A stretch of 64,000 nucleotides of DNA. Origin: Pseudomonadota bacterium (GTDB taxonomy: Bacteria; Pseudomonadota; Alphaproteobacteria; Micavibrionales; UBA2020). Below the pieces are notes generated by a model, which did not search any database, was not told where the DNA came from, and was given only the letters and a program-made list of their open reading frames with translations. How positions within the stretch are numbered: position 1 is the first letter of the stretch; each line of letters begins with the position of its first letter. Made by a program: the position numbers and the translations under genes. Below are positions 2,757 to 64,000 of this stretch, one piece after another. The DNA is taken from positions 92 through 64,091 of the forward strand of contig JACQAA010000054.1 of assembly GCA_016195185.1 (NCBI GenBank). Reading direction: 5' to 3'.

Positions 2757-3898
2757 CCGGCCCGCTCAAGGGACTGAAGGTTCTCGAATTCGCGGGTATC
2801 GGCCCCGGCCCCTTTTGCGCGATGATGCTGGCCGATATGGGAGCCTCGGTTATCCGCATAGACCGCCCCGGTGGCGCCGGCATCGACGGAATAAACATGA
2901 GCCGGGATATCACAGGTCGCGGGCGGCGGTCTCTGGCGCTTGACTTAAAGAAACCGGCGGCAACGGATATAGCCCTGAAGTTAGTTGAACAAGCGGACGC
3001 CCTGCTCGAGGGGTATCGCCCCGGCGTGATGGAAAAACTCGGTCTCGGTCCGGAGGTGTGCCGGATACGGAATCCCCGCCTTGTCTATGGCCGTATGACG
3101 GGATGGGGCCAGACAGGACCACTGGCCAGCACGGCGGGACATGACATCAACTACATCGCATTGTCCGGGGCCCTTTATGCGATGGGCGATCCCGCTCAGC
3201 CGCCCACACCGCCGCTCAATCTGGTCGGTGATTATGGCGGCGGCGGTTTATTGCTGGCGTTTGGCATGGTCTGCGCCCTGCTGGAATCGCGTCAGTCGGG
3301 ATTGGGTCAGGTAGTGGATGCGGCGATGACGGACGGTTCAGCCCTGTTGATGACGATGATCTATGGCTTGAAAGCCTCTGCGACCTGGAATAATGCCCGG
3401 GGGAAAAATTTTCTTGACGGCAGCGCGCCATTTTATGGGTGCTATGAATGTGCCGACGGAAAATATGTGGCAATCGGGGCACTGGAACCGCAATTTTACG
3501 CGCAGCTGCTGGAAAAAATTGGTCTCAGTAATCACGGCCAGCAATACGATTCATCCGCCTGGCCCGCACTGAAGGGCGAATTCGCCCGCCGCTTCAAGAC
3601 AAAGACGCGCGAAGAGTGGTGCGATATCATGACAGATGCTGATGTATGTTTTACCCCTGTCCTCAACCTTGACGAGGCACCGGGTCATCCTCATAACGCA
3701 GCGCGAAAAACATTCCTCTCTTCTGACAGGGTAACGCAGCCAGCCCCCGCCCCACGCTTCAGCCGCACGGCCGCCACACTCCAGCATGGTCCGCCCATGA
3801 TAGGCAAACACAGTTTCAATGTTCTGCAGGAGTTCGGTTTCAGTGAAGATGATTGCCACGACCTGGTGAGAAAAGGCGTTGTGTTTACCGCCTCGTGA
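2753..3898 (+). CDS. CoA-transferase family III protein, alpha-methylacyl-CoA racemase-like
   Basis: [35 protein letters not shown] and [15 protein letters not shown] are CaiB/BaiF family signatures, and the closest resemblance is to AMACR/Mcr. An ATGA overlap (2753-2756) joins it to the upstream thiolase. Confidence 0.8.
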
Positions 3899-42775: not shown

Positions 42776-43153
42776 ATGGCGATCACGCTTGATGCTCTGG
42801 ACGGACAATACGAGGTGCGCTCCGAGGCCAACCACGGCGGCCCCTTCCTGCTGAAAGGGGATGGCATCACTGTCGTCAAAAACGGCCTGACCTACCGCAA
42901 AGATCAAAAAGGCTGTATCTGGGAGAGCGCGTTCAGCGTTATCGGCAACAACAAGGTGCAGATCGAGTCAACCGTCGACCCCAGCCACGCCGGAGACGAC
43001 GTGTATATTTCCGACGAAAACGGCAACCCCACCAAGTGCATCGTCACCTACAGATCGGTCCTCAATGCTCAGTCCGTCAATGGTAAGGTGGTCCTGAGCG
43101 GAGAAATCAAGCACGGCGCCGAAATCACCCATCTGACCATGACCCAGCTGTAA
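42776..43153 (+). CDS. hypothetical protein (125 aa)
   Basis: This is a clean ORF with an upstream GGAG. I recognise no family. Confidence 0.45.
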   Translation: MAITLDALDGQYEVRSEANHGGPFLLKGDGITVVKNGLTYRKDQKGCIWESAFSVIGNNKVQIESTVDPSHAGDDVYISDENGNPTKCIVTYRSVLNAQSVNGKVVLSGEIKHGAEITHLTMTQL

Positions 43154-43211
43154 GGCGTTGTGACGATTCTGCCTTGAAAGGGCCGCCCATTTACCCTATC
43201 CTCCGCCCCAG

Positions 43212-43287
43212 GCTGTTGTAGCTCAGTTGGTAGAGCACATCATTCGTAATGATGGGGTCGGAGGTTCAAATCCTCTCAACAGCACCA
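43212..43287 (+). tRNA. tRNA-Thr (anticodon CGU)
   Basis: A manual cloverleaf gives acceptor GCTGTTG/CAACAGC, D-arm GCTC-AGTTGGTA-GAGC, anticodon arm CATCA-TTCGTAA-TGATG, T-arm GGAGG-TTCAAAT-CCTCT, and an encoded CCA. Confidence 0.9.
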
Positions 43288-43344
43288 TTTTCGTTGTTTG
43301 ATCCCCAGGCCCTCCTCACAATGCCCGCTACCGATTCCAAAAGA

Positions 43345-43373
43345 TTGACATGGCAGGATTATTTATTATTTTT
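43345..43373 (+). promoter_or_regulatory. possible promoter for tRNA-Tyr (TTGACA followed by a T/A-rich -10 region)
   Basis: A consensus -35 TTGACA lies at 43345-43350. The best -10 is only TATTTT with a spacer of about 16 nt, which is weak. Confidence 0.25.
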
Positions 43374-43440
43374 TGTGCTTGCTGTTTTTATGGATCGTCG
43401 GTAGTCTTGGCACTCGATTTTTACCCGTAAAACTTCCTGC

Positions 43441-43525
43441 GGAGGGGTGGCCGAGTGGTCAATGGCAGCAGACTGTAAATCTGCCCTCTACGAGTTCGAA
43501 GGTTCAAATCCTTCCCCCTCCACCA
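43441..43525 (+). tRNA. tRNA-Tyr (anticodon GUA), long variable arm
   Basis: A manual fold gives acceptor GGAGGGG/CCCCTCC, anticodon arm GCAGA-CTGTAAA-TCTGC, a long variable arm, T-arm GAAGG-TTCAAAT-CCTTC, and an encoded CCA. Confidence 0.9.
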
Positions 43526-43647
43526 TTTTACTGTCCCAGACAGTTTCTCCAAGTACCCAGAAGTTTAAAAAACCATTGCAAAATAAGCGTTAAATGGCTT
43601 ATTCTGTACTTGTAAGTTTTTCTGTGCCTTTGCGTATCCCAAAAAAT

Positions 43648-43709
43648 TGGGGGTATGTGAGGGGGTAGAAAATCAGCATAAAATACATAAATAAGGAATT
43701 ATACCCCCA
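43648..43709. repeat. TGGGGGTAT motif pair (inverted) just upstream of int; candidate integrase arm-type sites
   Basis: TGGGGGTAT is at 43648-43656 and its reverse complement ATACCCCCA is at 43701-43709, abutting the int ATG. A variant, GAGGGGGTAG, is at 43659-43668. Confidence 0.5.
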
Positions 43710-44927
43710 ATGGCACTCACAGATATGGCCTGCAAAAACGCAAAACCCAGCACAAAACCTTATAAGAAAGCCGATTCCCACGGCCTCTATTTGTACGTCA
43801 CGCCAAACGGTTCACGGTATTGGAGGCTCAAGTACCGATTCATGGGTAAAGAAAAAGTGTTGGCGCTGGGGGTATATCCAGAAGTTTCCTTAATTGAGGC
43901 GCGAGATAGGCGGGAGGAAGCCCGTAAGCTGCTGGCTTCGGATATAGACCCGAACATGGCAAAACAACAACGAAAGCATATAGCCGCGATAAGCGCCGAA
44001 AACACTTTTGAAGCTATCGCCAAGGAATGGCATGAAAACCGGAAATCAAAGTGGTCAGTGAACTATGCCAGAGACATTCTGCACCGCATGGAACTGGATA
44101 TTTTTCCGGCGCTGGGCATAACACCTATCAGTACCATTACCGCGCCACAGTTCTTGTCCGTATTGAGGCAGATTGAAAAAAGAGGCGCGCTGGAGATTGC
44201 ACACCGTGCCATGCAGACCTGCGGACAGGTGTTCCGCTATGCCATAGCCACCGGGAAGGCCGATAGGAACCCCGCCGCTGACCTGCAAGGGGCGCTGCAA
44301 CCCGTCCGGCATACCCACTTTGCCGCGTTGGAGGCCAAAGACCTGCCGGAGTTTCTGCAAGCCCTTGAACGGAATGAGGCGCGGCTTTATCAGCAAACCC
44401 GCCACGCGGTAAAACTGCTCATGCTGACATTCGTCAGAACAAGCGAGCTGATTAACGCCAAATGGGAAGAATTTGATTTTGAGGCAAAGCGCTGGGAGAT
44501 TCCAGCTGAGCGCATGAAGATGAGAAAACCCCATATCGTGCCCCTTTCCCGGCAGGTTGTTGATATTCTGCGGGAACAGCAAAAACTGACCGGAAAATGG
44601 CAATGGGTATTCCCCAATCAGGTGCGCCCCATGAAGTCTATGAGCAATTGCACCGTCCTGAATGCGCTGAAGCGTTTGGGCTATAAAGACCGCATGACCG
44701 GACACGGCTTCCGCGCCCTTGCCATGTCCACCATCAAGGAAAAACTGAATTACAGGCATGAGGTTGTGGACAGGCAGCTTGCCCACGCGCCCCGTAACAA
44801 GGTGGATGCCGCCTATGACCGCGCCAAGTTTCTGGATGAACGCAGGAAAATGATGCAGGACTGGGCGAACTATCTGGACGCGGCTGCTTCACAGGGCAAG
44901 GTTATTGTGGCCAAATTTGGAAAGTAG
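43710..44927 (+). CDS. int: tyrosine-type integrase, P4-like (DUF4102 N-terminal arm-binding domain)
   Basis: The N-terminus LTDMACKNAKP..KPYKKADSHGLYLYVTPNGSRYWRLKYRF is the DUF4102 signature. The catalytic region reads HGFRA...LAH...Y. Confidence 0.9.
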   Translation: MALTDMACKNAKPSTKPYKKADSHGLYLYVTPNGSRYWRLKYRFMGKEKVLALGVYPEVSLIEARDRREEARKLLASDIDPNMAKQQRKHIAAISAENTFEAIAKEWHENRKSKWSVNYARDILHRMELDIFPALGITPISTITAPQFLSVLRQIEKRGALEIAHRAMQTCGQVFRYAIATGKADRNPAADLQGALQPVRHTHFAALEAKDLPEFLQALERNEARLYQQTRHAVKLLMLTFVRTSELINAKWEEFDFEAKRWEIPAERMKMRKPHIVPLSRQVVDILREQQKLTGKWQWVFPNQVRPMKSMSNCTVLNALKRLGYKDRMTGHGFRALAMSTIKEKLNYRHEVVDRQLAHAPRNKVDAAYDRAKFLDERRKMMQDWANYLDAAASQGKVIVAKFGK

Positions 44928-45031
44928 AAGATACGTCTCCCTGCTGGCACAAGCCGGGGGGTAGGGGTAAAAATCGACTATAGGGCGGGAAACCTCCTAA
45001 AGTACCTAAACTTAGGTTTAGCACCGCCTAT

Positions 45032-48000
45032 TTACGCCGCATCCTTTTTGATTGATTGAATATCCAGCTTCGGCAATGACCGGACTATTTTGAGAGTTTC
45101 GAGGCTGACGGTGATGACGCGCTGGAACAGCTTGAGGGAATAGGCTGCGTCGCCGACTGTTTCAATGGCATACAGGTTGGCGTCGTTGACGATGCCGCTA
45201 TCCTTGTCGTTTTTCACGCCTTGGCGTTCCATGACCCATTCGAGGGCTGGTTTGCCGTTGACGACGTAATCATAGGCTTCCACGGGAATGTCACGGATGG
45301 TGATATAGTCGTTATAGACGACGGTGGACTTGTCGCCCTTCGTGGTAAATTTCATTTTGGTGACGTAATATTCTTTTTCGCCCAGTTTGCGCCCGCCTGT
45401 TTCCAGTGTCACGTCATAGGGCTTCGCGGATTCATAGCCGACGTGCAGGTCGGCCAGCGCCCGCCCTGCCTTGCTGAAAGCCCAGAAATCCGCAGCCTTC
45501 TTCACACAAGGGATGCGAGGCAACTGTTTGGAGAGGTTATCGGCGTATTTCTCGCGATAGCCTTCGGAGTGCAGGAGGCCATAGATATAATAGAAAACGT
45601 CTTCCTTGCTGATTTTCTCGACGCCGGGATAGGCTGCCTTGAAATGCGCCAGTCCTGCGTCGGTGATTCCGTCTTTTCTGCCAGTGCTGTTACCTGCGAA
45701 CAAGCCGCCATCACTGTCTTCCTCGTCTTCATAAAGATAAAGCGGGAAGCATTGGCCTTTTTCAACCACCTCCAAATCAGGCATAGCATTGGTTACTATT
45801 GCGCTAAACCCCGCCCGTGCGCCAATACCGGAAACAAGGATTCCAAGGTTACTTGTGTCTTCATCTGGGAAGATACTTTGCATCTGGCCAACACGGTGGT
45901 TAAACATTTTATCGTAATAAACCCATTGCTTTGTGAAAGGACGGTAAAGGCTCTTATTTAAAGCACCCTTCCTGTAGTTTCCTTTAATCAGCTTTTCTAA
46001 CTTCGGAATAAGGCTGCTAGACCAACTAATTTTTTTAGAGTCTCTGTCAATAAAATCTTCTACAGAAAGTTTCGAGTTTTTAAACCCGTCAACCTGGCTG
46101 TTATAAAATTCAATCATCCTCTTCATATTTTTGGATACGGATTCTTTTGAGGAGTTGTAGCACCATGCATCACGATTTGTACCAAGGCCAAGGGAATAGT
46201 TTTTAAAAATGGTGGCATTAACATCATTTCTCTTATCCCCCATAGAAATATATCCATCAAACGCCACGTCGCGCTGACCAATCCAATCATTATATTTATC
46301 GGGTATAATTTTCTGCCACCCGTTTTGTTCTTGAATCCCATTTATGCTGCTTAAAAACTTTATACGGTTTAATTTATCTTCCGTGGACAATTCGTTGCCG
46401 ATATCATGATAAAAAATATTTCCATGAGATTTGGCTTTTGGATTCTTAACAAACAAGGAAATTGAAATTCCCGTCATGCTTCCAGAGCCAAAAATATTCC
46501 CACCTTCTTTTGCACGGCCTCTACTTAGCATATTTTTACGAACATCGCCCCGCAGGTTAAAGACGTAAATATTGGAATATTCTTCGGCAAGACATTTCCT
46601 CATGCCATCCGCGAATCCACGCTCAATCCATGCACCTCCAGAAACATAGGCCATGACGCCGTTTTCACCAATCCTCTCTGAACCCCAACGAATTGCGCGG
46701 ATATACGAATCCTTCAGCGCCTTTGTTGTGTTTGCAGTCGAGTGCGTGCCGTAAGTTTCATCTATCCTACTGTCCAAAAATGGATAGCTAATATTTGCCG
46801 CGTTATCATTTTCACTCTTTTGCCCGATAGAATAAGGGGGATTGCCGATGATGACACGAATATCCAGTGCCTTTTGCCTTTTACGGCGTGCGCTGTTGTC
46901 TTCCATTAAGACGCTCACCAAATCATCCTTCTCGTATAGTTGGAAAGTGTCTGTCAGTAGGATACCTTGAAAAGGCTCATAATCGCCACCCGCTATCCCG
47001 TGATAGGCTGCCTCGATATTGATTGCGGCAATGTAATAGGCCAGCAGGACAATTTCATTGGCATGGATTTCATACGCATATTTATGCGGAAGGTCTTTGG
47101 GGTCGATCAGACCGCTTTGCAACAGGCGCGTGATAAACGTGCCAGTGCCCGTGAAGGGGTCGAGGATGTGAACACCTTTACTGCCAAGCGTCTCGCCAAA
47201 TTCCTGTTGCAGAACGTCATTCACGGAATGAATAATAAAATCGACCACCTCGACCGGAGTATAAACGATCCCAAGTTTTTCCGACAATTTAGGGAAGGCG
47301 TTTTCGAAGAATGTACCATACAGTTCTTTCACGATCTTTTGTTTCGCAGCGGCAGAGTCAATACCGGCAGCGCGGCGTTTCACGCTGTCATAGAATTGCT
47401 CCAGCGTATCGGTTTCCTTGTCGATGCTGTGGTCGTGCAAGACTTCCAAGACATGTTGCATCGCCATTGACACGGGGTTATGGCTGGCAAAGCTGTATTT
47501 GTCGAACAGCGCGTCAAAGACAGGCTTAGTGATAAGGTGCTGGGCGAGCATTTCGATGACTTCATCATCGGTGATCTGCCCGTTCAGGTCGTCGCGCAAC
47601 TCTTCCACGAAAGAATGGAAGGCAGCGGATTCCTTTTCGTTCTTCGGATTCTTGACAATAGCGGAAATGCGCGTGATGTGGGTCTGGGCGATTTTAGCGA
47701 TGTCTTTCGCCCAGTCTTCCCAATAATTCCGGTTGCCGCATTTCTTGACGATTTTGGCGTAAAGGGCACGTTCGATTTCCCCCACCTCAAAGCGCATGGT
47801 AAATTGGCCGTCAGAAGTTTTCTTCTTTTCCGCTGTGCCGATAGTATTCGTCCCTCTGCCTGTGGGCTTGTTGCTGCCTTTCTTTTGCTTAGGCGCAATA
47901 TCCCCCGTGACGGCAATCACTTCCATGCGGCTGTTGTTCTTGCCGGTCAGGTCGAGTCTATTTATCGTGCCGTCAAAGCGGTCGTCATGCGAGCGCAGGG

Positions 48001-48550
48001 CTTGCAGGACTTCCCAAACGACGCGATAGGTATGGTTATCGTTCAAAGCCTCATGGGGTTCCACGTCTTCGGGGATGACCACGGGCAGGATGACGTAGCC
48101 GCGCTTTTTATTCGGCGCATTTCGCATGATGCGCCCGACCGACTGCACCACATCCACCTGTGAATTACGAGGCGTGAGGAACAACACGGCATCCAGCGCG
48201 GGCACGTCCACGCCTTCGGACAGGCATCGAACATTGCTAAGGATGCGACAGGTATTCTCCGGGGTCTTGGCTTTCAACCATTCCAGCTTTTCTTCTTTTT
48301 CGGAGGCGTTCATGCCGCCGTCGATGTGTTCGGCCTCACAAGTAAGCGTGTGGTGGTCGATTTCCTGCTTTTGGTATTCTTCCACGACCGCGCTAAACAT
48401 TTTTGCGATATTCGTGGAACTGACCTTGTGCGTTTTCGCCCCTGACTTTTGTTCGATGACTTGGCAGAAGGCCACGGCACGGCGCATGGGGTCAGCGAAG
48501 CCACAAGAATCATCAATGGCTGGACGAAGCCGGAGAAAAACTTTTTTCAC
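45032..48550 (-). CDS. Type ISP restriction-modification enzyme, 5'-truncated (RecA2 helicase lobe, N6-adenine methyltransferase and C-terminal specificity domain retained; nuclease and RecA1 absent)
   Basis: The translation begins inside the helicase C-lobe (CRILSNVRCLSEGVDVPALDAVLFLTPRNSQVDVVQSVGRIMR). It then has the methylase motif IIGNPPYSIGQK and a FPLYLYE-containing C-terminal domain. Walker A, DEAH and Mrr-like nuclease sequences are absent. Only a GTG start is available at 48550, and an in-frame TAA lies 3 codons upstream (48562-48560). Confidence 0.75.
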   Translation of the reverse strand: MKKVFLRLRPAIDDSCGFADPMRRAVAFCQVIEQKSGAKTHKVSSTNIAKMFSAVVEEYQKQEIDHHTLTCEAEHIDGGMNASEKEEKLEWLKAKTPENTCRILSNVRCLSEGVDVPALDAVLFLTPRNSQVDVVQSVGRIMRNAPNKKRGYVILPVVIPEDVEPHEALNDNHTYRVVWEVLQALRSHDDRFDGTINRLDLTGKNNSRMEVIAVTGDIAPKQKKGSNKPTGRGTNTIGTAEKKKTSDGQFTMRFEVGEIERALYAKIVKKCGNRNYWEDWAKDIAKIAQTHITRISAIVKNPKNEKESAAFHSFVEELRDDLNGQITDDEVIEMLAQHLITKPVFDALFDKYSFASHNPVSMAMQHVLEVLHDHSIDKETDTLEQFYDSVKRRAAGIDSAAAKQKIVKELYGTFFENAFPKLSEKLGIVYTPVEVVDFIIHSVNDVLQQEFGETLGSKGVHILDPFTGTGTFITRLLQSGLIDPKDLPHKYAYEIHANEIVLLAYYIAAINIEAAYHGIAGGDYEPFQGILLTDTFQLYEKDDLVSVLMEDNSARRKRQKALDIRVIIGNPPYSIGQKSENDNAANISYPFLDSRIDETYGTHSTANTTKALKDSYIRAIRWGSERIGENGVMAYVSGGAWIERGFADGMRKCLAEEYSNIYVFNLRGDVRKNMLSRGRAKEGGNIFGSGSMTGISISLFVKNPKAKSHGNIFYHDIGNELSTEDKLNRIKFLSSINGIQEQNGWQKIIPDKYNDWIGQRDVAFDGYISMGDKRNDVNATIFKNYSLGLGTNRDAWCYNSSKESVSKNMKRMIEFYNSQVDGFKNSKLSVEDFIDRDSKKISWSSSLIPKLEKLIKGNYRKGALNKSLYRPFTKQWVYYDKMFNHRVGQMQSIFPDEDTSNLGILVSGIGARAGFSAIVTNAMPDLEVVEKGQCFPLYLYEDEEDSDGGLFAGNSTGRKDGITDAGLAHFKAAYPGVEKISKEDVFYYIYGLLHSEGYREKYADNLSKQLPRIPCVKKAADFWAFSKAGRALADLHVGYESAKPYDVTLETGGRKLGEKEYYVTKMKFTTKGDKSTVVYNDYITIRDIPVEAYDYVVNGKPALEWVMERQGVKNDKDSGIVNDANLYAIETVGDAAYSLKLFQRVITVSLETLKIVRSLPKLDIQSIKKDAA

Positions 48551-48842
48551 AGCAGATGTTTACGGTGCTTGCTTTGCAGAGGTCTTGCTTAAACAAAGCG
48601 GGCGATAAGTGGAAAAAATTTATGAACCTTCTGGATGATATTCTGCCCAAAAAGGGAAAAGCAACTCAGTTAAAATTGCCTATTTTTCCTGATGACGGCG
48701 ACTGAAAAGGACGTGCCAATTTTTCTTGCGCTAATCTGAACAACTTAACCCCGCTCATAAGGCCGCCTTTAGGCATCCGCAATTAGCTCAATAAAAACGG
48801 ACATCACATCTGTTTGCTTGTGTATTTTTTTGCAGAGGACGC

Positions 48843-49547
48843 ATGACTAAAAAATATCTTCCTGAACTAAAAGTCTATTCAATTGAACAGTTTGCAAAAA
48901 AATTAGGCTGTACAACACGGGATATTCTCCACTATGGGAGAACAGGCCAATTAAAACTATCCGTTTTGAGTAAGGGATGGACACTTGAATGCGGCTACTA
49001 TGAAGAAGCAGATAATGATGGTGGTCTGAACTGCATCCCCTGCGGAAATGTTCATTGCAGCCCCGGCACGGTGCTGGGGCTTTGGCAGTGTGGCGCAATA
49101 GAACTTGCCGGGGACGGCTCCGCCGTTAACCCCTCTTTTTATTTTAAAGACTATTCATACGCTGTACTTCCTGAGGACGGCAGGAAAAAAGACGTGATTG
49201 TGAAAGAACAGGATGTTGTGATCACCATCAAGGACGCCCTGGATTTTGAAGCGTCAGCCTCGGATCAGGCTCTCTCTGGCAGTGATTCAGAGAACACAGC
49301 TTCAGACGGCTACCTTTCTACACCTTATACAGGAGACCCAGGACGTCCATCCAAGGCAGCCCATCTTTATTTGAAAAAGTTTAAAGACCTTTGCAAAGAG
49401 GGCCAGGTAGCAGCTACTCTCGCGGAACAGTCCCGCCACTTGTTGCAATGGCTAGAGACAGAGCATCCCAGTATTCCTCACCCTACAGTAAGAGTTATCG
49501 AGAACAGAATCCGCTCCCTATACAACAAAGCCAGAACAGCCTCATAA
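48843..49547 (+). CDS. hypothetical protein with N-terminal excisionase/MerR-like HTH
   Basis: YSIEQFAKKLGCTTRDILHYGRTGQLKL resembles HTH_17-type motifs. I do not recognise the rest. Confidence 0.45.
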   Translation: MTKKYLPELKVYSIEQFAKKLGCTTRDILHYGRTGQLKLSVLSKGWTLECGYYEEADNDGGLNCIPCGNVHCSPGTVLGLWQCGAIELAGDGSAVNPSFYFKDYSYAVLPEDGRKKDVIVKEQDVVITIKDALDFEASASDQALSGSDSENTASDGYLSTPYTGDPGRPSKAAHLYLKKFKDLCKEGQVAATLAEQSRHLLQWLETEHPSIPHPTVRVIENRIRSLYNKARTAS

Positions 49548-49552
49548 GAAAA

Positions 49553-49574
49553 CCACGATATTTTAATATCGTGG
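49553..49574 (+). terminator. stem-loop CCACGATAT-TTTA-ATATCGTGG after the HTH gene
   Basis: A perfect 9-bp stem starts 6 nt after the stop codon. It is followed by GGTATTT. Confidence 0.4.
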
Positions 49575-49669
49575 GGTATTTAGTGGCCTATATCATGGGC
49601 ATTGAACGGCCTTAGTGTTGAAACTGTGAGCAACGATCCGTTTCACAAAACAACATTAAGGAGTTTCAA

Positions 49670-49861
49670 ATGACGCAAAAAGCACACAGTATCAAAGCGT
49701 TCTGCGAGGCGCACGACATCTCGCGCAACCTGTTTTACACCCTAAAAAAACAGGGACTCGCCCCGAAGATGATTGCCCTTGGTAAACGCCGCCTTATCAC
49801 TGAGGAATCAGCAACAGAATGGCGGCATGCGATGCAAAGCCAATCCAATCCCAGTGCATGA
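49670..49861 (+). CDS. AlpA/excisionase-family small HTH DNA-binding protein
   Basis: The protein is 63 aa. It reads IKAFCEAHDISRNLFYTLKKQGLAPKMIALGKRRLITEESATEW. A strong AAGGAG Shine-Dalgarno precedes it. Confidence 0.6.
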   Translation: MTQKAHSIKAFCEAHDISRNLFYTLKKQGLAPKMIALGKRRLITEESATEWRHAMQSQSNPSA

Positions 49862-49942
49862 AAAAGAAAAACCCGATCATGATTTCAACATGACCGGGCA
49901 GGCTATTCAATCCCCTCCATTACAAAAAGAAAGAGAAAGAAC

Positions 49943-50740
49943 ATGATAAATATACCCCTTCCCCCTGATAAAAACAACCTTCCTACGGCGGCGCAAGCAT
50001 ACGCGGCGCATTTCATAGCTGTGTTCCCGCTGCATACACGCGGAAAAACTCCCCTGACACAGAACGGCTTCAAAGACGCCTGCAAAGACTCAACCGCCAT
50101 ATCTTCATGGTGGGCGCAATCACCGGAGGCGAATATCGGCATTCCTACAGGTATAATCAACAGCTTCTGGGCGCTGGACATTGACCCACGGCATGACGGC
50201 GAAAACACCCTGCGCGCGCTGGAACAGGAATACGGCGCATTGCCACAGACCGTCGAAGTCATTACAGGCGGGGGCGGGCGTCACCTGTATTTCACGCTAC
50301 CGGCTCAAGGCGTGATTAAAAACAGTGCCGGGCGGCTAGGGCAAGGGCTGGATGTGCGCGGTGACGGCGGCTATATCGTTGCGCCGCCTTCCATCCATGA
50401 ATCGGGGCGAACTTATGCCTTCTCCGTTGATAGTGGCGAGAATATAGCCCCCGCGCCTGAATGGTTGCTTGCCCTTGTGCAGAAGCCAGAAGCACAAGAG
50501 GCTTTTACTCCTGTTTCGGAGTGGCGCGATATTGTCAAAGGCGTAACTGAAGGGCAGCGCAATGACACGCTCGCCCGCATTGCCGGAAAACTTTTACGTT
50601 GCGGGCTTGATGCCTTTGTCTCTCTTGAGCTTTGCCTTGCATGGAATGACAGCCGCTGCAAACCGCCGCTGGGTCATGCCGAAGTCATAGCCGTCGTCAA
50701 CAGCATAGCAGGACGGGAACTTGCCCGCCGTGGAGTATAA
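49943..50740 (+). CDS. bifunctional DNA primase/polymerase (Prim-Pol N-domain plus PriCT-1-like C-domain)
   Basis: VFPLHTRGKTPLTQNGFKDA, NIGIPTG...WALDIDPRHDG, GGGRHLYF and LDVRGDGGYIVAPPSIHESGRTY are Prim-Pol motifs. The C-terminal GQRNDTLARIAGKLLRCG resembles PriCT. Confidence 0.8.
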   Translation: MINIPLPPDKNNLPTAAQAYAAHFIAVFPLHTRGKTPLTQNGFKDACKDSTAISSWWAQSPEANIGIPTGIINSFWALDIDPRHDGENTLRALEQEYGALPQTVEVITGGGGRHLYFTLPAQGVIKNSAGRLGQGLDVRGDGGYIVAPPSIHESGRTYAFSVDSGENIAPAPEWLLALVQKPEAQEAFTPVSEWRDIVKGVTEGQRNDTLARIAGKLLRCGLDAFVSLELCLAWNDSRCKPPLGHAEVIAVVNSIAGRELARRGV

Positions 50741-55365: not shown

Positions 55366-58125
55366 CTAGTTTTTCTTCCGCTGCGGCAGAGTAAAGAAGA
55401 AAGTCGTTCCCGCGCCCGGCCCTTTTGATTCCGCCCAGATCTGCCCGCCGTGCTGGTTGATGATTTTTTTAGCGATAGTCAGCCCCGATCCTGTGCCGCC
55501 GCCATAGGCATCGCGGGGGTGCAGTCTTTTGAAAATCTTGAAAATGGCCTCCAGATGCTGCGGGTCGATGCCGATGCCGTGGTCACGCACATAAAAAATC
55601 ATCTCCCCCGGCGCCCGCTCGTGTTTGTCGGTGCAGCCGATCTCTATCTTATTCCCCTTCTGGTCGCTGTATTTCAGCGCGTTGCCGATCAGGTTCTGAA
55701 ATACTTCGGCGATCCTGATGCGGTCACAGACCAGTGTCGGCAGATCACAGGTGATCTCGATGTTCGCCGCGGTCTCCTGCAACTTGATGGCGAAAAGTTC
55801 AATGACTGCCCGCACGACTTCATTAAGGTCAGTCTTGTTGATGGCCAGCTGGGTGCGCCCCAGCCGTGAATAATGCAACAGGCTGTCGAGCAGCTCGCTC
55901 ATTCTCTTGGTGAGATTGGAGATGGTATGCAGCTTGTTTTTTCCGTCTTCATCCAGCTTGTCGCTGTAATCCTCGAGCAGGAACTGAGAAAAACTTTGCA
56001 GCCCGCGCAAAGGCTCCTTGAGATCGTGGGAAACGATGTAGGAAAAATCGTCCAGCTCCTGGTTGCTGCGCTCCAGCTCCCTGGAATATTCGAGGATTTT
56101 TTCCTCGGCTTTTTTCAGGTGACTGATGTCCCGGATCACCCCGATCAGAAACTGTTCGTTCTTTTCGTTGAGAAAGGCGGTCTTTTTGGTCAACAAAATG
56201 CGGCGCTCGCCGTGCGCATCGGTGAAAAATTCCTCGCTGCTGTCCACCCCGCCGCTGGTAAACACCTTGTCGTCATGTTCCCAGAAATGATCCGCCTCCT
56301 CCTTGGGAAAAAAATCGTAATCGCTCTTGCCGATAAACTTCTCCTGCGGTCCGTTCATGAACTCCCAGAACGCCTTGTTGCCGCCGATCCAGCGGTGCTG
56401 GCGGTCCTTCATGAAAATGGGGTCGGGAATGTGATTCAGCACGTCATTGAGATATCTATGGGCGTCGCGCAGCTTGCGGCTGGCTTCGAGCCGCTCGCTG
56501 ATGTCGCGGGCGATCTTCGAGGCGCCGACCACCTTCCCCGTCGTATCCCGCACCGGGGAAATCGCCACCGAAACCTGAATCGGGCGGCCGCCCTTGGCGA
56601 CGCGCACAGTGTCAAAGTGCTCTACTCGCTTGCCAGAACTAACCTGCTCCATGATCTGCGCCTCTTCCTGCAAGCGGTCGGGGGGGATGATCAGGCTGAT
56701 GTGCTTGCCAACCACCTCGTCCGCCGTATAACCGAAGAGCCGCGCCGCTCCGGCATTCCAGGACGTAATCACGCCCTGCAGCGCCTCGCTGATAACCGCA
56801 TCTGAAGACGACTCAACAATCGCCGACAACAGCCCTCTGCTATTCCCTTCCTGCCGTTCCAGGCTGAGATCGCGGATAAACGCGGTAAAGAAATAATCCT
56901 GGTTTTTCTGCGCCGTGATCGAGAGTTCCACCGGAATGATCCCGCCTGACTTGGTCAGCGCCTGCATCTCAATCCGTTTGTTCAGGATATTTGACACCCC
57001 CTCACGCAGAAATTTGTTGACCCCGCGCCAGTGTCGCTCCCGGTAGTTGGCGGGGATAAGGGTGTCGGCCATCACCTTGCCCATGACCTCCGGCGCGCTC
57101 CAGCCAAAGATAATCTCGGCGCGCATATTCCATTCCGTGATCCGGCCATGGGCGTCGATGGAAATCACGGCATCCAATGAACTATCCAGGATCAGCCGCA
57201 TATGTTCCTGGCTGTCCAACAGCCGCTTCTGCGCATCCTGACGCTCGGCAATGGCAGCACCCAGCAGCAGCCCGGTCGCCGCCACCGTCATCATGAATAT
57301 ATCGAGCAGCATGAGATTTTCCTCGGTGGTGCCGCCGGTAAACAGCTCATACCCGCGCACCGAGGCCGCAATGGCGGTCGCGGAGATAAACAAGGTCAGC
57401 AAAGTCGTGCCACGCTGGCCAAAGCGCAGCGCCGCCCAGATGATGAAGGGGAAAACCGGATAGAGAAAGGCGTGTCCCGTCATGCCTAACAGCGGGATCG
57501 GGCTGAAAATATTGGTCGAGATGATCGACAACCAGAACGCCAGTGACAAAATCTCCGCAATCACGATCAGTCGCGGCCGGACATAAGGCCCCTGTGCCCA
57601 CGCCAGAATCGCCGGCGCGACAATCAGCGCCCCGCCGGCATCCCCCAGCCACCAGATTCTCCACAGCGCGCCAAAGGCTGACCAGGGCTGCACTCCCCCC
57701 AGGCACAGGCTTAAGGTGCCGATGCTGGCGCTGACCGCCGTGCCAAAGACGGCTGAACAGACAATCAGCCCGACAACATCCTTCAGCCGGTGCAACCGGG
57801 TATCCACCGCCACAAACCTCTGGAGCAGCCATACCGCCAGCACCGCCTCCAGCGTATTACCCGCCGCGATGCCTAGGGCGACGGCGACGGGCTCGTGGGT
57901 GGTCACATTGGCCAGAAAAGCCCCCAACAGAATGCCGGGCCAGAACTCCTGCCCTAACAGCAGCAAGGCCGCCATCGCGATGCCGGTCGGCGGCCAGATA
58001 ATGGTCACCTGTTCCGCCAGCATCGCCAGCCTGAGCCCGAGCTTGGCGGCCACCATATATATGGTGGCCAGCGCCAGGATAAGGGCGACCTTCTTAAGGT
58101 TTGTGAGCGTCATTTGAACTGCCAT
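55366..58125 (-). CDS. sensor histidine kinase: MASE1 membrane domain, multiple PAS domains, HisKA and HATPase_c
   Basis: The N-terminal IIWPPTGIAMAALLLLGQEFWPGILLGAFLAN is a MASE1 signature. At least three PAS-like segments follow. The H-box is SHDLKEPLR and the ATPase motifs are NLIGNALKY, DHGIGI and GGTGSGL. An alternative start at 58113 forms an ATGA overlap with the upstream gene's stop. Confidence 0.85.
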   Translation of the reverse strand: MAVQMTLTNLKKVALILALATIYMVAAKLGLRLAMLAEQVTIIWPPTGIAMAALLLLGQEFWPGILLGAFLANVTTHEPVAVALGIAAGNTLEAVLAVWLLQRFVAVDTRLHRLKDVVGLIVCSAVFGTAVSASIGTLSLCLGGVQPWSAFGALWRIWWLGDAGGALIVAPAILAWAQGPYVRPRLIVIAEILSLAFWLSIISTNIFSPIPLLGMTGHAFLYPVFPFIIWAALRFGQRGTTLLTLFISATAIAASVRGYELFTGGTTEENLMLLDIFMMTVAATGLLLGAAIAERQDAQKRLLDSQEHMRLILDSSLDAVISIDAHGRITEWNMRAEIIFGWSAPEVMGKVMADTLIPANYRERHWRGVNKFLREGVSNILNKRIEMQALTKSGGIIPVELSITAQKNQDYFFTAFIRDLSLERQEGNSRGLLSAIVESSSDAVISEALQGVITSWNAGAARLFGYTADEVVGKHISLIIPPDRLQEEAQIMEQVSSGKRVEHFDTVRVAKGGRPIQVSVAISPVRDTTGKVVGASKIARDISERLEASRKLRDAHRYLNDVLNHIPDPIFMKDRQHRWIGGNKAFWEFMNGPQEKFIGKSDYDFFPKEEADHFWEHDDKVFTSGGVDSSEEFFTDAHGERRILLTKKTAFLNEKNEQFLIGVIRDISHLKKAEEKILEYSRELERSNQELDDFSYIVSHDLKEPLRGLQSFSQFLLEDYSDKLDEDGKNKLHTISNLTKRMSELLDSLLHYSRLGRTQLAINKTDLNEVVRAVIELFAIKLQETAANIEITCDLPTLVCDRIRIAEVFQNLIGNALKYSDQKGNKIEIGCTDKHERAPGEMIFYVRDHGIGIDPQHLEAIFKIFKRLHPRDAYGGGTGSGLTIAKKIINQHGGQIWAESKGPGAGTTFFFTLPQRKKN

Positions 58126-59157: not shown

Positions 59158-60852
59158 TCAATGGTTCAACGCTTTATGCACCGTGTAGACATCTCCTCCT
59201 GGCAAGTTCGCCGGGATTTTCAAGGCATCCATGATCTCCGTGCGCATGGCGGCACTGGTGCCGATCCCGTCGGAAAAGACCGCGGTGGCCCAGGAGCGCA
59301 GGTCTTCAATGTCATCCATGCGGTGCACGCGGGCGATCACGGGCAGCCGGGGATATTCGCTGCGCACCTTGTGCAGCAACTTGAGAGTGTGCACGTAATT
59401 GTCAAAGGTGATGACCAGGGCCCGCGCCCGCTCTATCTGCGCTGATTTGAGGGTTTTCAGGCTGGTGGCGTCGCCATAGAGCGCCTGACACCCCAGCGCC
59501 AGCGCCTTTTCCACCTGGGCCGGATCCGTGTCAATCGCCAGCAAAGGAATATGCGTTCCTTTCAGCATGTTCCGGATATTCTTCCCTGTTTCGCCGAAGC
59601 CGCAGAGAATGATATGGTGGCTGATGTGGCGCAGCGCTTCATCCTCCGAGGAATCCTCCTCCGGCCCCCGCTTCAGTTTGAGCAGCGACAGCACGAAAAA
59701 GGCCACCGGCTTGTTATAGAGGATAAATAGGGTGGAAACCATCAAACTCAAGACAAAAGCGATCAGCAGGATGTTGCCAAAGGCAGGGTCAATGATGCCC
59801 AGTTTCACTCCCAGCACGACCAGGATCAGGCTGAACTCATCACAGTTGGACAGCACCAGCCCCACGCGCAGGCCGTTGCCAAAACTGCGGCTGTACACGG
59901 AAACAATCAGCGTCGTCAGAGCCAGTTTGACCGCAAAGATGGCCGCCACCAGCAGCAGGATCAGCGGGAAATGCGCCGCCAGCACCGACAGCTTGAGCAG
60001 CGTGCCCATGACAATAAAGAATATGCCGATCATGATGTCATGAAAGGGGCGCAGATCATCCTCGACCTTGTGCCGGAATTCCGTTTCGCCAATGATCATG
60101 CCGGCCAAAAAAACGCCCAGCAGGGTGGGGAGCTGGAAAAGACTCGAAGCCCAGGCCGCGCCGATGATGGTCAGCAACGTCGTGAACACAAAAATTTCGT
60201 TGGATTTGAGCGCGCCGATGGAGCGCATCAGGGATAATTCAACCTTTTTGCCAAAAAAATAAATGCCGAACAGCACCAGGAGCAAGGCGCCGATGTTCAC
60301 CGCCAGATCATGCAGCATCGCCCGCGAGTTGTCCGCGTGCGCCAGCGCCGGCAGGCTGGCCAGAAAAAGGACGGCGGCAAAATCCTGAAACAGGGTGATG
60401 CCAAAGGCGATTCGGCCGTGACTTTCATAAAATTCCTTCTGATCTATCAGCTGCTTGCTGACGACCGCCGTCGACGACATGGAGACCGCGCCGCCGATTA
60501 AAAACGCCGCCGCCGCGCTGAAATGGCCGGTGGCGGACAACAGCCACATCGTCAGCGCGGTGATGGCCGCAGTGCAGGCGGCGCCGACACGCACCACCAT
60601 CCTGAGGTTGCGCTTGAGCTTGGGCCAGGAAAAATCAAGCCCGATCATGAACATCATCAGCATGATGCCGACGTCCGAGAGAATCCCGACTTCCCTCTGC
60701 GTATGCAGCAACCCCAGGGCTTCCGGGCCGATGATCATGCCCACCACCAGATAGCCCAGCACCGAGGGCAGCCCCAGCCTGGCCAGCAAAGCCAGCACGC
60801 CCGTCACAATCGCCAAAACGGTCGTCAGCTGATTGAGAAAATCAGAATCCAT
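59158..60852 (-). CDS. CPA2-family monovalent cation:proton antiporter with C-terminal RCK/TrkA-N domain (KefB/C-like)
   Basis: About 12 transmembrane segments begin LGLPSVLGYLVVGMIIGPE. The C-terminal Rossmann motif is HIILCGFGETGKNI. Confidence 0.85.
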   Translation of the reverse strand: MDSDFLNQLTTVLAIVTGVLALLARLGLPSVLGYLVVGMIIGPEALGLLHTQREVGILSDVGIMLMMFMIGLDFSWPKLKRNLRMVVRVGAACTAAITALTMWLLSATGHFSAAAAFLIGGAVSMSSTAVVSKQLIDQKEFYESHGRIAFGITLFQDFAAVLFLASLPALAHADNSRAMLHDLAVNIGALLLVLFGIYFFGKKVELSLMRSIGALKSNEIFVFTTLLTIIGAAWASSLFQLPTLLGVFLAGMIIGETEFRHKVEDDLRPFHDIMIGIFFIVMGTLLKLSVLAAHFPLILLLVAAIFAVKLALTTLIVSVYSRSFGNGLRVGLVLSNCDEFSLILVVLGVKLGIIDPAFGNILLIAFVLSLMVSTLFILYNKPVAFFVLSLLKLKRGPEEDSSEDEALRHISHHIILCGFGETGKNIRNMLKGTHIPLLAIDTDPAQVEKALALGCQALYGDATSLKTLKSAQIERARALVITFDNYVHTLKLLHKVRSEYPRLPVIARVHRMDDIEDLRSWATAVFSDGIGTSAAMRTEIMDALKIPANLPGGDVYTVHKALNH

Positions 60853-61079
60853 GTTTTTTCCTGTGGGCTGTTATCTCTTCATTCTAGCAGGAAAGTGTTT
60901 ACAGACGCTTCTTTTAGTTAAAACTTTATTTACTTCTACCCAAAGGGGTAGCCGCATCATAAGCAAGAGTTAAACATCCCGGCCTTACACTGGGAGATAT
61001 ATAGGGTGCACGGCATTACCTCCAAAGGATGATTGATTCAGGACCTGCCAGAAACTAACTCGGTGGAAAGGGGATTACC

Positions 61080-61538
61080 ATGACCATTACATTTTGCGTA
61101 AAAACAGTCAAAGACCTGATGACGCATAGCCCGGAAATGATCAGCCCCGGCGCCACTCTGCAGCAGGCGGCCCAAAAAATGGAGGCCATCAACTGCGGCG
61201 CGCTGCCGGTGGGCACCGCCAACAAGTTAAAGGGAATCATCACTGACCGCGACATCGTCATCCGCGCCCTGGCCAAAGGCAGGAACCCGGCGACCGAGAA
61301 GGTCGCCAACTATATGACCGATCGCGTCTACGCCTGCACGGAGAACGATACGCTGGAGGAAGCGGCCGAAAAAATGCACCGGATGCAGGTCAGCCGCCTG
61401 GTTGTCCGGGACAAGGAGGGCAAGGTCAGCGGCATTCTGTCGTTTGGCGAATCACTCCGCCATGACGCGGACCCCCGGGAGATCGCCGGCGTCATCAAGC
61501 ATTGCTGCGGCCCGGTCGTCGTTTACAAGGAGGCATAA
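61080..61538 (+). CDS. CBS-domain pair protein
   Basis: Two CBS motifs are present: VKDLMTHSPEMISPGATLQQAAQKMEAINCGALPV and the later RMQVSRLVVRDKEGKVSGILS. Confidence 0.8.
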   Translation: MTITFCVKTVKDLMTHSPEMISPGATLQQAAQKMEAINCGALPVGTANKLKGIITDRDIVIRALAKGRNPATEKVANYMTDRVYACTENDTLEEAAEKMHRMQVSRLVVRDKEGKVSGILSFGESLRHDADPREIAGVIKHCCGPVVVYKEA

Positions 61539-61895
61539 ATGGGACAAATGAATATCCGGACGAGACCGTTTGAAGCGCTGCCGTGCCTCGAACAGCTGCA
61601 TCTGTTCCGGACGGAACATGACGGCTTTATCCGCGACAACCGCGACCTGGCCAGCGACCTGGACCGGCTGGAATATACGCTGAAGGAGGCCGATCTGATC
61701 AGGTCGGCGGAAAACCAGCGCCGCTGCCAGAACGCTTACCGTCAGGCTTTGTTGCGGCTGGAGGAGATCGCCGAAGACCAGCAGCGGCTTTGCGATGAAA
61801 GCCCGCTGGTGCCAAAAATTGACGCCGTTTATCAGAGCACAAAGGTTTTTGAAGTGAAAAAGGATTTTGAAACCAGCCTTGCAGGCTTGCTGTAA
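61539..61895 (+). CDS. hypothetical protein (118 aa)
   Basis: The ORF starts directly after the CBS gene's stop (TAAATG). I recognise no family. Confidence 0.4.
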   Translation: MGQMNIRTRPFEALPCLEQLHLFRTEHDGFIRDNRDLASDLDRLEYTLKEADLIRSAENQRRCQNAYRQALLRLEEIAEDQQRLCDESPLVPKIDAVYQSTKVFEVKKDFETSLAGLL

Positions 61896-61937
61896 AAATT
61901 ACTATTTTTGATACTATCTTGTTTAATGGGAGGCGCC

Positions 61938-62087
61938 ATGCTGAGGATTTTGCCGATTGAAGACAGTGACACACACATCGTAGAAAAAGATGGGGGTACT
62001 TGGGTACTTGGGTACTTGGGTACTTGGGTACTTGGGTGCTTGGGTGCTTGGGTGCTTGGGTGCTTGGGTGCTTGGGTGCCTGAATAG
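61938..62087 (+). pseudogene. duplicated 5' fragment of the response-regulator gene running into an octanucleotide repeat (49-codon ORF)
   Basis: A GGGAGG Shine-Dalgarno and an ATG at 61938 give MLRILPIEDSDTHIVEKDG, then repeat-encoded GTWVLGYLGTWVLGCLGAWVLGCLGAWVPE*. The first 12 codons are nearly identical in DNA to the start of 62266..62760. Confidence 0.6.
61994..62080 (+). repeat. octanucleotide tandem repeat: 5 x GGGTACTT, then 5 x GGGTGCTT, then a partial unit
   Basis: I counted the units directly in the sequence. They start at 61994, 62002, 62010, 62018 and 62026 (TAC type) and at 62034, 62042, 62050, 62058 and 62066 (TGC type). A partial unit occupies 62074-62080. Confidence 0.95.
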
Positions 62088-62265
62088 TACCTTGAGAAGA
62101 AATTTGGTGATGGCAAAGATAATTTAGGGGGTATCGTATCCGCTCTGGAGTTTTTAAAAGAAAAGGCGGCACATTCCAAGTTAGATGATGTGGAAATGAT
62201 CATAGACAGTACTTTCAGGCTCTGTCTGTCGATTTACTGTCTCAGTTCAAGGGGGGAGTACATAG

Positions 62266-62760
62266 GTGTTGAGGATTTTACTGATTGAAGACAGTGACAG
62301 TGATGCCTATATCATCCAAAAGGCCATCCATGACCATGTCAAGGATGCCGTGTGCTCTCGCGTCGCTAACGCAAAGGCCGGCGAAGAATACCTGCAAAAG
62401 CGGCGTGCCGACATAATTCTGCTGGACCTGGGCTTGCCCGACAGCTCCAACCCCGCCGACACGTACACCCGCATTTGCCGGCACGCCGGGAAAATCCCGA
62501 TCGTGATTTCCACCAATATTCATGACCATGCTCTCGCCATGACCCTGGTGCATGAGGGCGCTGAGGATTATCTGAATAAAGACCTGATTGTCGACAAGCC
62601 GGAGCACGTCAGGGATGCCATTACCTTCGCGATTGAGCGCCATGCCCTGCTGCAAAAGGCCATGAGCGAGAAAGAGGAGGCCGTCAAGGAATCCGAGCAG
62701 AAGGACACCGTGCTCAATTGCTTCATGGGGGGCTATTCCGTATCGAATCGGAAAAAGTAA
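62266..62760 (+). CDS. single-domain response regulator (CheY-like receiver)
   Basis: RILLIEDSDSDAYII carries the acidic pocket, IILLDLGLPD the phospho-acceptor Asp, and IVISTN is also present. The start is a GTG with a GGGGGGAG Shine-Dalgarno. Confidence 0.85.
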   Translation: MLRILLIEDSDSDAYIIQKAIHDHVKDAVCSRVANAKAGEEYLQKRRADIILLDLGLPDSSNPADTYTRICRHAGKIPIVISTNIHDHALAMTLVHEGAEDYLNKDLIVDKPEHVRDAITFAIERHALLQKAMSEKEEAVKESEQKDTVLNCFMGGYSVSNRKK

Positions 62761-62766
62761 GCGCCC

Positions 62767-64000
62767 CTATGCCGCGCCCGCCGGCGGCGGGATGGTGAAG
62801 AAGAAAGTGGTGCCCTGCCCTTCTCCCGCCGATTCCGCCCACATCTCGCCACCGTGCTGCTTGATGATTTTCCTGGCGATGGTCAGTCCCGACCCGGTGC
62901 CGCCGCCATAAGCGTTCTTGGGATGCAGGCGGCGGAAGATCTTGAACACCTCTTCGATATACTCCTGGCGGATGCCGATGCCGTGATCGCGGACGTAGTA
63001 CACTTTTTCACCCGGGAAACGCCGGTGGTTTTCAACATAACCAACCTCGATCCGGTTGCCGTCCTTATTATTATACTTGATGGCGTTGCCGATCAGGTTC
63101 TGAAAGACCTCCGTGATCCTGACATGGTCGCAAACGATGGTCGGCAGCTGACGGGTAATGACAACCTCGGTGTTCTTCTCCCTGAGGCCGATCGAGAACA
63201 GGGCGATGATGCCCTGCACGACGGCGGTCAGATCGGTTTGGCGCACCGCCAAAGCGGTGCGGCCGAGGCGCGAATAATGCAGGAGGGCGTTCAGGCAGTC
63301 TTCCAGCCTTTTGGTCAGGTCGGAAATGGTCAGTAATTTTTCCTTGCCGTCAGCGCCCAGCTTGTCCGCATAGTCCTCCAGCAAAAACTTGGAGAAGTTC
63401 TGCAGCCCGCGCAGCGGCTCCTTCAGGTCGTGCGAAGCGATATAGGCGAAGTCATCCAGCTCGCGGTTGCTGATTTCGAGCTCCCGGAGATACGTCTCGC
63501 GCTCTTCCTCGGCTTTTTTGCGCGCCGTAATGTCGCGGATAATCCCGGAAAAATAGCGCTCATTCCCCACCTGAAAGGTGCTGATCGAAAGGTCGATGGG
63601 AAAGACGCTGCCGTCCTTGCGCTTGGCGGTCAGCTCGCGCCCGGGCGTGCCGATGATCTTGGCCTGCCCCGTCTCCAGATAGCGGGAAATATAGTGGTCG
63701 TGATTGCTATGATAAGGCTCCGGCATCAGCCGGTTGATATTCTGTCCCGCCACCTCTTTTTCCTGGTAGCCGAACATACGCTCGCAGGCGCGATTAAAGC
63801 TCTCAACGATCCCGCGGTCGTTAATGATGATCATGCCGTCAACGGTATTGTCAACCACGGCGCGCAGCTTGCTTTCCTGCTTGGCCAGCGCGCGTGTTGC
63901 CGTGGACAACTGCCTGGTTTTCTCCCGTACCTGCGCGTTCACCAGCAAAGACTGGCGTGTCTGCTGAAACGACAAAATACTGACCAGCCCCGTGAGCAAC
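62767..64000 (-). CDS. PAS-domain sensor histidine kinase (5' end beyond the window), paralogue of the 55366..58125 C-terminal module
   Basis: The H-box is SHDLKEPLRGLQNFSKFLLEDYADKL. NLIGNAIKY, DHGIGI and GGTGSGLTIA follow, with a PAS domain upstream. The ORF is open to the window edge. Confidence 0.85.
   Translation of the reverse strand, partial: LLTGLVSILSFQQTRQSLLVNAQVREKTRQLSTATRALAKQESKLRAVVDNTVDGMIIINDRGIVESFNRACERMFGYQEKEVAGQNINRLMPEPYHSNHDHYISRYLETGQAKIIGTPGRELTAKRKDGSVFPIDLSISTFQVGNERYFSGIIRDITARKKAEEERETYLRELEISNRELDDFAYIASHDLKEPLRGLQNFSKFLLEDYADKLGADGKEKLLTISDLTKRLEDCLNALLHYSRLGRTALAVRQTDLTAVVQGIIALFSIGLREKNTEVVITRQLPTIVCDHVRITEVFQNLIGNAIKYNNKDGNRIEVGYVENHRRFPGEKVYYVRDHGIGIRQEYIEEVFKIFRRLHPKNAYGGGTGSGLTIARKIIKQHGGEMWAESAGEGQGTTFFFTIPPPAGAA

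Follow-up and report, generated by a model that had tools for sequence, protein, structure and literature searches.

The octanucleotide array upstream of a response regulator gene in the window (the 64-kb stretch of DNA analyzed here) is best explained, with a probability of roughly 60%, as a neutral, slippage-prone microsatellite in a dead, inserted gene fragment and not as a genetic switch. The array lies in a damaged fragment of a small gene that separates two copies of the regulator start, and all reading frames close shortly behind it. Given that all frames are closed, the array is most likely neutral, mutable sequence in dead DNA; it is its neutrality that we infer. The window makes up nearly all of its source contig, a 64.1-kb piece of a metagenome-assembled genome.

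The regulator start and the inserted fragment of family X

The regulator is a single-domain protein of 164 amino acids (62266 to 62760, plus strand; Pfam Response_reg, E = 6.4e-14) that starts with GTG and is 100% identical to MBI3440881.1; the closest public regulators besides this entry are only 63% identical. The usual immediate upstream neighbor of this regulator family is a conserved hypothetical gene, which in the window is an open reading frame of 118 amino acids (61539 to 61895, plus strand; MBI3440880.1) with orthologues in the related loci L001 (49% identical) and L002 (38% identical). A Na+/H+ exchanger gene (TrkA_N), the gene for the 118-amino-acid protein, which has no Pfam family, and the regulator gene follow one another in the same order in the window (59158 to 62760), L001, L002, and the contig of the relative P0004, and the relatives that share this order are only 55 to 63% identical. 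A functional partnership between the 118-amino-acid protein and the regulator is probable. The gap between the two genes is 15 bp in L001, 50 bp in L002, and 15 bp in the P0004 contig, compared to 370 bp in the window.

On its other side, the regulator is followed by a PAS-HisKA-HATPase histidine kinase gene (62767 to 63999, minus strand; open reading frame and Pfam) that runs off the window. The original prediction spoke of a regulator-kinase pair, and this adjacency is real and is kept in L002, where the arrangement is convergent as in the window; however, the kinase is on the minus strand and convergent with the regulator, and it is not an operon partner. The H-box region of this kinase (DDF.YI.SHDLKEPLRGLQ.FS.FLLEDY) is nearly identical to that of a second kinase in the window (55366 to 58125, minus strand), which has a MASE1-like membrane part, and in the P0004 relative a MASE1 kinase lies directly 3' of the regulator. 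Elsewhere in the window, the G+C content of positions 43000 to 50000, around a minus-strand open reading frame of 1172 amino acids (45032 to 48550), is 0.41 to 0.50 compared to about 0.55 in the remainder, and this region may be acquired DNA.

The 370-bp spacer holds a second copy of the regulator start. Positions 61939 to 61971 and 62267 to 62299 are identical at 30 of 33 positions, with 0.00 such matches expected from 100 shuffles, and 29 of 33 positions are identical when the two copies are aligned codon for codon from both start codons; the longest exact stretch that they have in common is 17 nt. The duplication that had been read from the sequence is thereby confirmed, as are both of its peptides: the left copy of regulator codons 1 to 11, found by direct-repeat search and alignment (61938 to 61970, plus strand), encodes MLRILPIEDSD, with a Leu6-to-Pro change in the beta-1 strand motif, and the right copy, which is the first 33 nt of the present regulator gene, encodes MLRILLIEDSD. 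The GGGAGG Shine-Dalgarno sequence ascribed to the left copy is likewise present (61928 to 61933, plus strand; direct reading), 4 nt before ATG 61938, and the context of this start (gggaggcgccATGCTGA) resembles that of the regulator start in L001 (ggagggccgccATGCTGA). The left copy also stands at the ancestral position, 42 nt after the 118-amino-acid gene. Given that it keeps both the ancestral Shine-Dalgarno-ATG context and the ancestral position, the left copy marks the ancestral start of the regulator; the present start lies beyond about 328 bp of added DNA. The added DNA is flanked by direct repeats of 33 nt and the relatives have the empty site, the pattern of an insertion with target duplication.

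The added DNA contains a fragment of a small protein family, which we call family X. A phmmer search with the 66 residues encoded at 62088 to 62285 against 1.8 billion representative proteins returned 18 hits, the best of which (P0112, 76 amino acids) was 71% identical (E = 3.5e-20), and a profile search extended the family to at least 89 members, all annotated as hypothetical and most of about 75 amino acids. In the reverse direction, tblastn with six family members matched the window only at 62091 to 62276. At the DNA level, the fragment is 72% identical to the P0112 locus (L123), and the alignment stops exactly at the GTG of the regulator. By phmmer, tblastn, and DNA alignment, the homologous core (YLEKKF...LSSRGEYI) spans 62088 to 62265 on the plus strand, and this homology over the conserved core places the window copy in family X.

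Proteins of family X are about 65 to 100 amino acids in size and share the motif IVSALEYLKEEA...EMIID..F.LCLS.Y..LRGEY. AlphaFold predicts two long helices (pLDDT 82). The members have no Pfam family, with the exception of P0200, which has a precomputed Pfam hit (PF24726); a search of PDB by sequence found no solved relative, and comparison by fold returned only generic helical hairpins. Family genes were located in L123 (632 to 862), L124 (4001 to 4231), L129 (4001 to 4231), and L125 (2570 to 2776), and all four of the readable genomic contexts are of the quorum-sensing type. The order is luxR-luxI-X in L124 and L128/L129, with the start of X overlapping the end of luxI; in Micavibrio, including Micavibrio aeruginosavorus, two luxR genes are followed by X (L125 to L127); and in L123, X follows an FA_desaturase gene, the same desaturase that flanks the lux genes in L124 and L129. 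Family X may comprise quorum-sensing accessory or anti-activator proteins.

Judged from its sequence, the window copy of X is a pseudogene: its start is gone, an in-frame TAG interrupts it, and its lux partners are absent. The TAG (62085 to 62087, plus strand) stands at the position of Lys9 (AAG) in P0112, the closest X relative. We considered that TAG might be a reassigned codon and rejected this, given that it is an ordinary stop that ends 14 of 46 long open reading frames. Of the start region of X, an alignable remnant is left (61971 to 61993, plus strand) with weak similarity to L123, in which either ATC (61977) or GTA (61980), according to the alignment chosen, appears to take the place of the native ATG. 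The first canonical in-frame start in the core is GTG 62190, in mid-domain; with this codon as its first start and the TAG at 62085, the window copy has no intact open reading frame with a start of its own. A nearly invariant Glu of the family is Lys in this copy, and the last codons of X are replaced by the 5' end of the regulator read out of frame. Searches with luxI, luxR, and FA_desaturase queries from L124 found none of these genes in the 64-kb window (tblastn, E < 0.01), and in their absence the X copy is stranded. The core has no frameshift and a dN/dS of 0.14 compared to P0112; given that dS is saturated at 1.48, this ratio mostly reflects the history before the insertion. When the array is left out, the distance from the left regulator copy to the firm X core is 30 nt, compared to 27 coding nt in P0112, and this collinearity suggests that the inserted piece starts at about the X start codon. 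The spacer had been taken as the upstream promoter or operator region of the regulator; it is instead an insertion scar, with a fragment of a conserved small gene in the 5' end of the regulator.

The octamer array and the reading frames around it

By direct reading, the array consists of five units of GGGTACTT (61994 to 62033), five units of GGGTGCTT (62034 to 62073), and a truncated GGGTGCC (62074 to 62080). Together these make up 87 nt, or exactly 29 codons, of the GGGTRCTT unit (61994 to 62080, plus strand). Tandem Repeats Finder reported 61994 to 62079 with a period of 8, 10.8 copies, 98% matches, and a score of 137, which is by far the top tandem repeat of the window, and a two-unit pattern with 1 mismatch allowed matched 10 times at the array compared to 0.02 times expected from shuffles. 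The 5+5 two-block structure that had been described is thereby confirmed. With 10.9 uninterrupted units at 98% identity, the array is long enough for slippage; published screens accept three or more octanucleotide units (PMC7383803). Most likely the array is hypermutable.

We did not find the array in any X relative, and no period-8 array occurs in the loci of these relatives; it follows that the array grew inside this copy of X. Its position corresponds by alignment to about codons 6 to 8 of X, which places it in the apparent former N-terminal coding region. Just right of the array, GTACCTTG resembles the unit GTACTTGG and may have been the seed. The two homogeneous blocks would be consistent with a base change in a single unit and subsequent slippage, and the suggestion of two successive expansions is a reasonable one, given that other GGGTRCTT arrays have an equal block structure. 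The array is single in the 64-kb window, which holds no dispersed GGGTRCTT family, and a search of the window for a mobile element or repeated insert found no second copy of the spacer other than the 33-nt duplicate.

The frame arithmetic of the original prediction was correct. A unit of 8 nt is not a multiple of 3, and no frame opens into a longer protein: the three frames stop after the array at TGA 62082 to 62084, TAG 62085 to 62087, and TAG 62125 to 62127, all within 47 nt. Given that all three are closed, no unit count can switch a protein on or off, and a change in unit number moves no functional open reading frame into or out of frame. Of the slipped-strand phase-variation architecture first proposed, the array that is able to slip stands, but there is no open reading frame for it to switch. 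From ATG 61938, an unannotated open reading frame of 49 codons (61938 to 62087, plus strand) runs through the copied regulator start, the 5' remnant of X, and the array to the TAG. We found no homologue and no Pfam match for it, its exact sequence is absent from a collection of 15 billion proteins, and the variable micropeptide once suggested exists only as this open reading frame without relatives. Both ATG 61938 and the X core are in frame with the array, and past the TAG this frame is open for 67 codons, to TGA 62286 to 62288, inside the regulator.

The insertion brought about 208 bp of X to a point after codon 11 of the regulator, and a duplication of the first 33 bp of the regulator on the right side left the regulator intact. 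Template switching, end joining with filler DNA, and homology-anchored illegitimate recombination are among the possible routes. The present regulator starts with GTG and takes its ribosome-binding site from the Arg-Gly-Glu codons of X; its Shine-Dalgarno sequence, AGGGGGGAG (62250 to 62258, plus strand; direct reading), is made of these conserved codons, the equivalents of which in L123 are AGAGGGGAC. The X fragment decayed to a pseudogene, and the octamer microsatellite would have grown in its 5' part by replication slippage, after which a unit variant with G would have arisen and been amplified, giving the two homogeneous blocks and 87 bp in total.

Some observations count against a neutral scar. 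The X core shares the frame of ATG 61938, the array has a length of exactly 29 codons, and the core retains its frame and a low dN/dS, three coincidences that fit a once-translated fusion protein. Accordingly, X may have decayed only very recently, or the TAG may be confined to one population as a variant. An uninterrupted octamer array of 11 units is unusual for neutral bacterial DNA. The hairpin predicted for its RNA is very stable and resembles a leader repeat of Haemophilus whose regulatory role is proven (PMC12721329). The only plausible effect of the array would be on the mRNA leader of the regulator, through its length, its G.U-rich hairpin, or its G3N5 runs.

Alternative explanations for the array

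The main rival reading, possible but unlikely, is that the array is a regulatory leader repeat, in which the transcribed hairpin or G-runs would set the processing, stability, or translation of the regulator mRNA and slippage would tune it stepwise. In the sense RNA, self-pairing of the array is predicted to give a hairpin of about 45 pairs with numerous G.U pairs (61993 to 62092, plus strand; -57.6 kcal/mol, z = -10.7), a fold that none of 200 shuffles matched. The sense strand is the G-rich one, and its 11 GGG runs with 5-nt loops fit a G-quadruplex motif by direct reading; when quadruplex energies were switched on in ViennaRNA, the minimum-energy fold was still the hairpin. As DNA, either strand of the array has weak predicted folding. 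However, the GGGTRCTT unit as RNA is always predicted to fold into long G.U-rich hairpins, and the hairpin is an automatic property of the unit and not evidence of selection.

For such a leader, the array would have to be transcribed, which is plausible. Consensus scans of the plus strand of 61896 to 62265 found no sigma-70-like promoter, the one promoter type covered, and no terminator motif, which suggests that the regulator is probably cotranscribed with a CBS-domain gene and the 118-amino-acid gene by read-through. Within this scope, the scan gives no support to the suggestion that the array may act by changing promoter spacing, and no Rfam family was found in 61400 to 62900 at E up to 1. 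Precedents also exist: the 7-nt repeat in the 5' untranslated region of Haemophilus hmw1A forms an RNA hairpin that is cleaved by RNase III, and its length sets expression (PMC12721329), and an octanucleotide, (GCATCATC)12-15, lies upstream of hmwA in Haemophilus influenzae biogroup aegyptius (PMC3309571). In isolates of other species, GGGTRCTT arrays often lie 11 to 260 nt upstream of genes, but they show no strand preference, with 13 in sense and 13 in antisense to the nearest gene. In the window, moreover, 185 nt lie between the array and the regulator start, and the array stands within a translated upstream open reading frame, where ribosomes would unwind the hairpin, and the relatives of the regulator (L001, L002, and the P0004 contig) manage without such a leader.

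We also considered that the chimeric open reading frame of regulator start, array, and X core was, or is, a phase-variable translational contingency locus, with 87 nt as the in-frame ON length and the TAG as either a knockout of recent date or a minority allele that became fixed in the metagenome-assembled consensus, and we regard this as improbable. The common frame of the start, the array, and the X core and the dN/dS of the core would agree with it, each frame of the unit yields one and the same hydrophobic repeat of 8 residues (GYLGTWVL), and one base change at 62085 would open an open reading frame of 116 codons. However, the assembled sequence contains the TAG, which serves as an ordinary stop in this genome, and the two in-frame coincidences together would occur by chance in about 1 of 9 cases. 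X has also lost its natural start, its lux partners, and its nearly invariant Glu, and a dN/dS taken over saturated dS is mostly pre-insertion history.

When one genome per species was searched for three GGGTRCTT units in a row, at least 119 stretches were returned (L003 to L121) from more than 40 species of many phyla. Among the matches listed, dozens are in the Planctomycetota metagenome-assembled genome G1-WW12-33, and single arrays are found in isolates of Burkholderia, Pseudomonas, Psychrobacter, Moraxella, Enterovibrio, Paenibacillus, and Actinoplanes; at least 12 arrays are in the complete Saprospiraceae chromosome OZ244050 and at least 9 in a Kiritimatiellia metagenome-assembled genome. 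It could be argued from this recurrence that (GGGTRCTT)n arrays are a class with its own biology and that the array in the window is one of a widespread type of hypermutable leader element that tunes a neighboring gene, here a two-component regulator of an uncultured proteobacterium, or was produced by a dedicated template-copying mechanism instead of chance slippage, a reading that we consider very doubtful. A viral collection gave a single GGGTRCTT match, too few for comparison with control octamers, and the at least 119 loci stand as a count and not as a measure of over-representation. The label "inside ORF" is unreliable for these arrays, given that none of the six frames of the unit contains a stop codon. 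A text search of the literature for doubled octamer units matched nothing, and single units matched only primers.

Several features of these other arrays may be recorded. They often consist of blocks of one-base variants (GGGTGCCT, GGGTGACT, GGGTATTT, and GGATGCTT) or abut arrays of other 7- to 8-nt units. Four unrelated low-GC contigs, three from uncultured Gammaproteobacteria and one from Cytophagales, contain exactly TC(GGGTACTT)4 with different flanks (L055, 3394 to 3429; L056; L103; L121). In Pseudomonas cerasi, (GGGTGCTT)3 (L092, 1844 to 1867) lies 25 nt upstream of an open reading frame (1892 to 3145) with reverse-transcriptase-like motifs (YVDD). At the end of contig JAVJTD010000193.1, the array of L120 (5750 to 5851) is followed directly by AGATCGGAAGAGC, an Illumina adapter, which points to adapter read-through in that assembly.

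It is highly unlikely that the duplicate start or the length of the array in the window is an artifact in which the metagenome assembly fused strain variants into a chimera. The contig is metagenome assembled, the two start copies differ as strain variants would, and the collections searched yielded no independent sequence of the organism, whether by exact-protein look-ups with the regulator and the 118-amino-acid protein or by a scan of JGI metagenomes with X. The sole locus returned by these searches (L130) was a spurious 20-residue match and was discarded. Against a chimeric join, the two copies share only 17 exact nt, which should be below the k-mer lengths common in assembly, both copies are linked by unique sequence of the X fragment, and the 87-nt array with its A/G block boundary should be shorter than a typical read.

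That the spacer arose by tandem duplication of the regulator and decay of the copy to a receiver-domain pseudogene can practically be dismissed: its first 11 codons match and ALEFLKEK...VEMIIDS in its translation looks receiver-like by eye, but a profile of 22 regulator homologues matches only residues 1 to 15 of the translation without the array and gives the remainder a score below zero, Pfam Response_reg has no match, and the same residues belong to family X.

Relation to known systems and significance

The array is like the (ATCTTTC)n repeats of hmw1A and hmw2A in that uninterrupted units of 7 to 8 nt, in more than 10 copies, lie upstream of a gene, in the window on the presumably transcribed strand, and form or are predicted to form a long RNA hairpin. 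It differs in that the hmw repeat is in a true 5' untranslated region beside the promoter and has been shown to vary in length, whereas the array in the window is not known to vary in length or to be processed and is part of a pseudogene fragment, at 185 nt from the gene and inside an upstream open reading frame. Contingency loci in coding regions include the (CTCTT)n repeat in the leader-peptide region of Neisseria opa and the tetranucleotide repeats of Haemophilus. Such loci have been reviewed (PMC11868660). The array shares with these loci a unit that is not a multiple of 3, a position few codons after a start, and a hydrophobic stretch in every frame. However, one frame of such loci reads into a functional protein, whereas the three frames of the array stop within 47 nt and the gene downstream is dead.

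Short tandem repeats can also be dispersed in a genome, as with the STRR heptamers of cyanobacteria and the TAACTGA repeats of Beggiatoaceae. In these, one unit occurs in tandem at many, mostly intergenic places, as GGGTRCTT does in the Planctomycetota, Saprospiraceae, and Kiritimatiellia genomes; the window, in contrast, holds a single array and no dispersed family. As for family X, TraM and QslA are small helical anti-activators of LuxR-type regulators. Anti-activators of this type are discussed in PMC13043044 and PMC5767178. The members of family X resemble them as small helical proteins that are encoded in luxR/luxI loci, but we found no sequence or fold relationship between them, and the window copy is a pseudogene away from lux genes.

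In summary, as it stands this locus illustrates clearly that what looks like a regulatory region can be a scar, made by the insertion of a gene fragment, a 33-bp duplication that rescued the target, and a microsatellite in dead DNA. For annotation, it means that an unannotated 370-bp spacer can hold a recognizable pseudogene. If the array were length-variable and tuned the regulator, it would extend control by repeats in leaders from host-adapted pathogens to an environmental bacterium and to a signaling gene. Perhaps worth more than the locus itself are two by-products of this work, a family of small proteins tied to luxR and luxI and the recurrence of one octamer across phyla.
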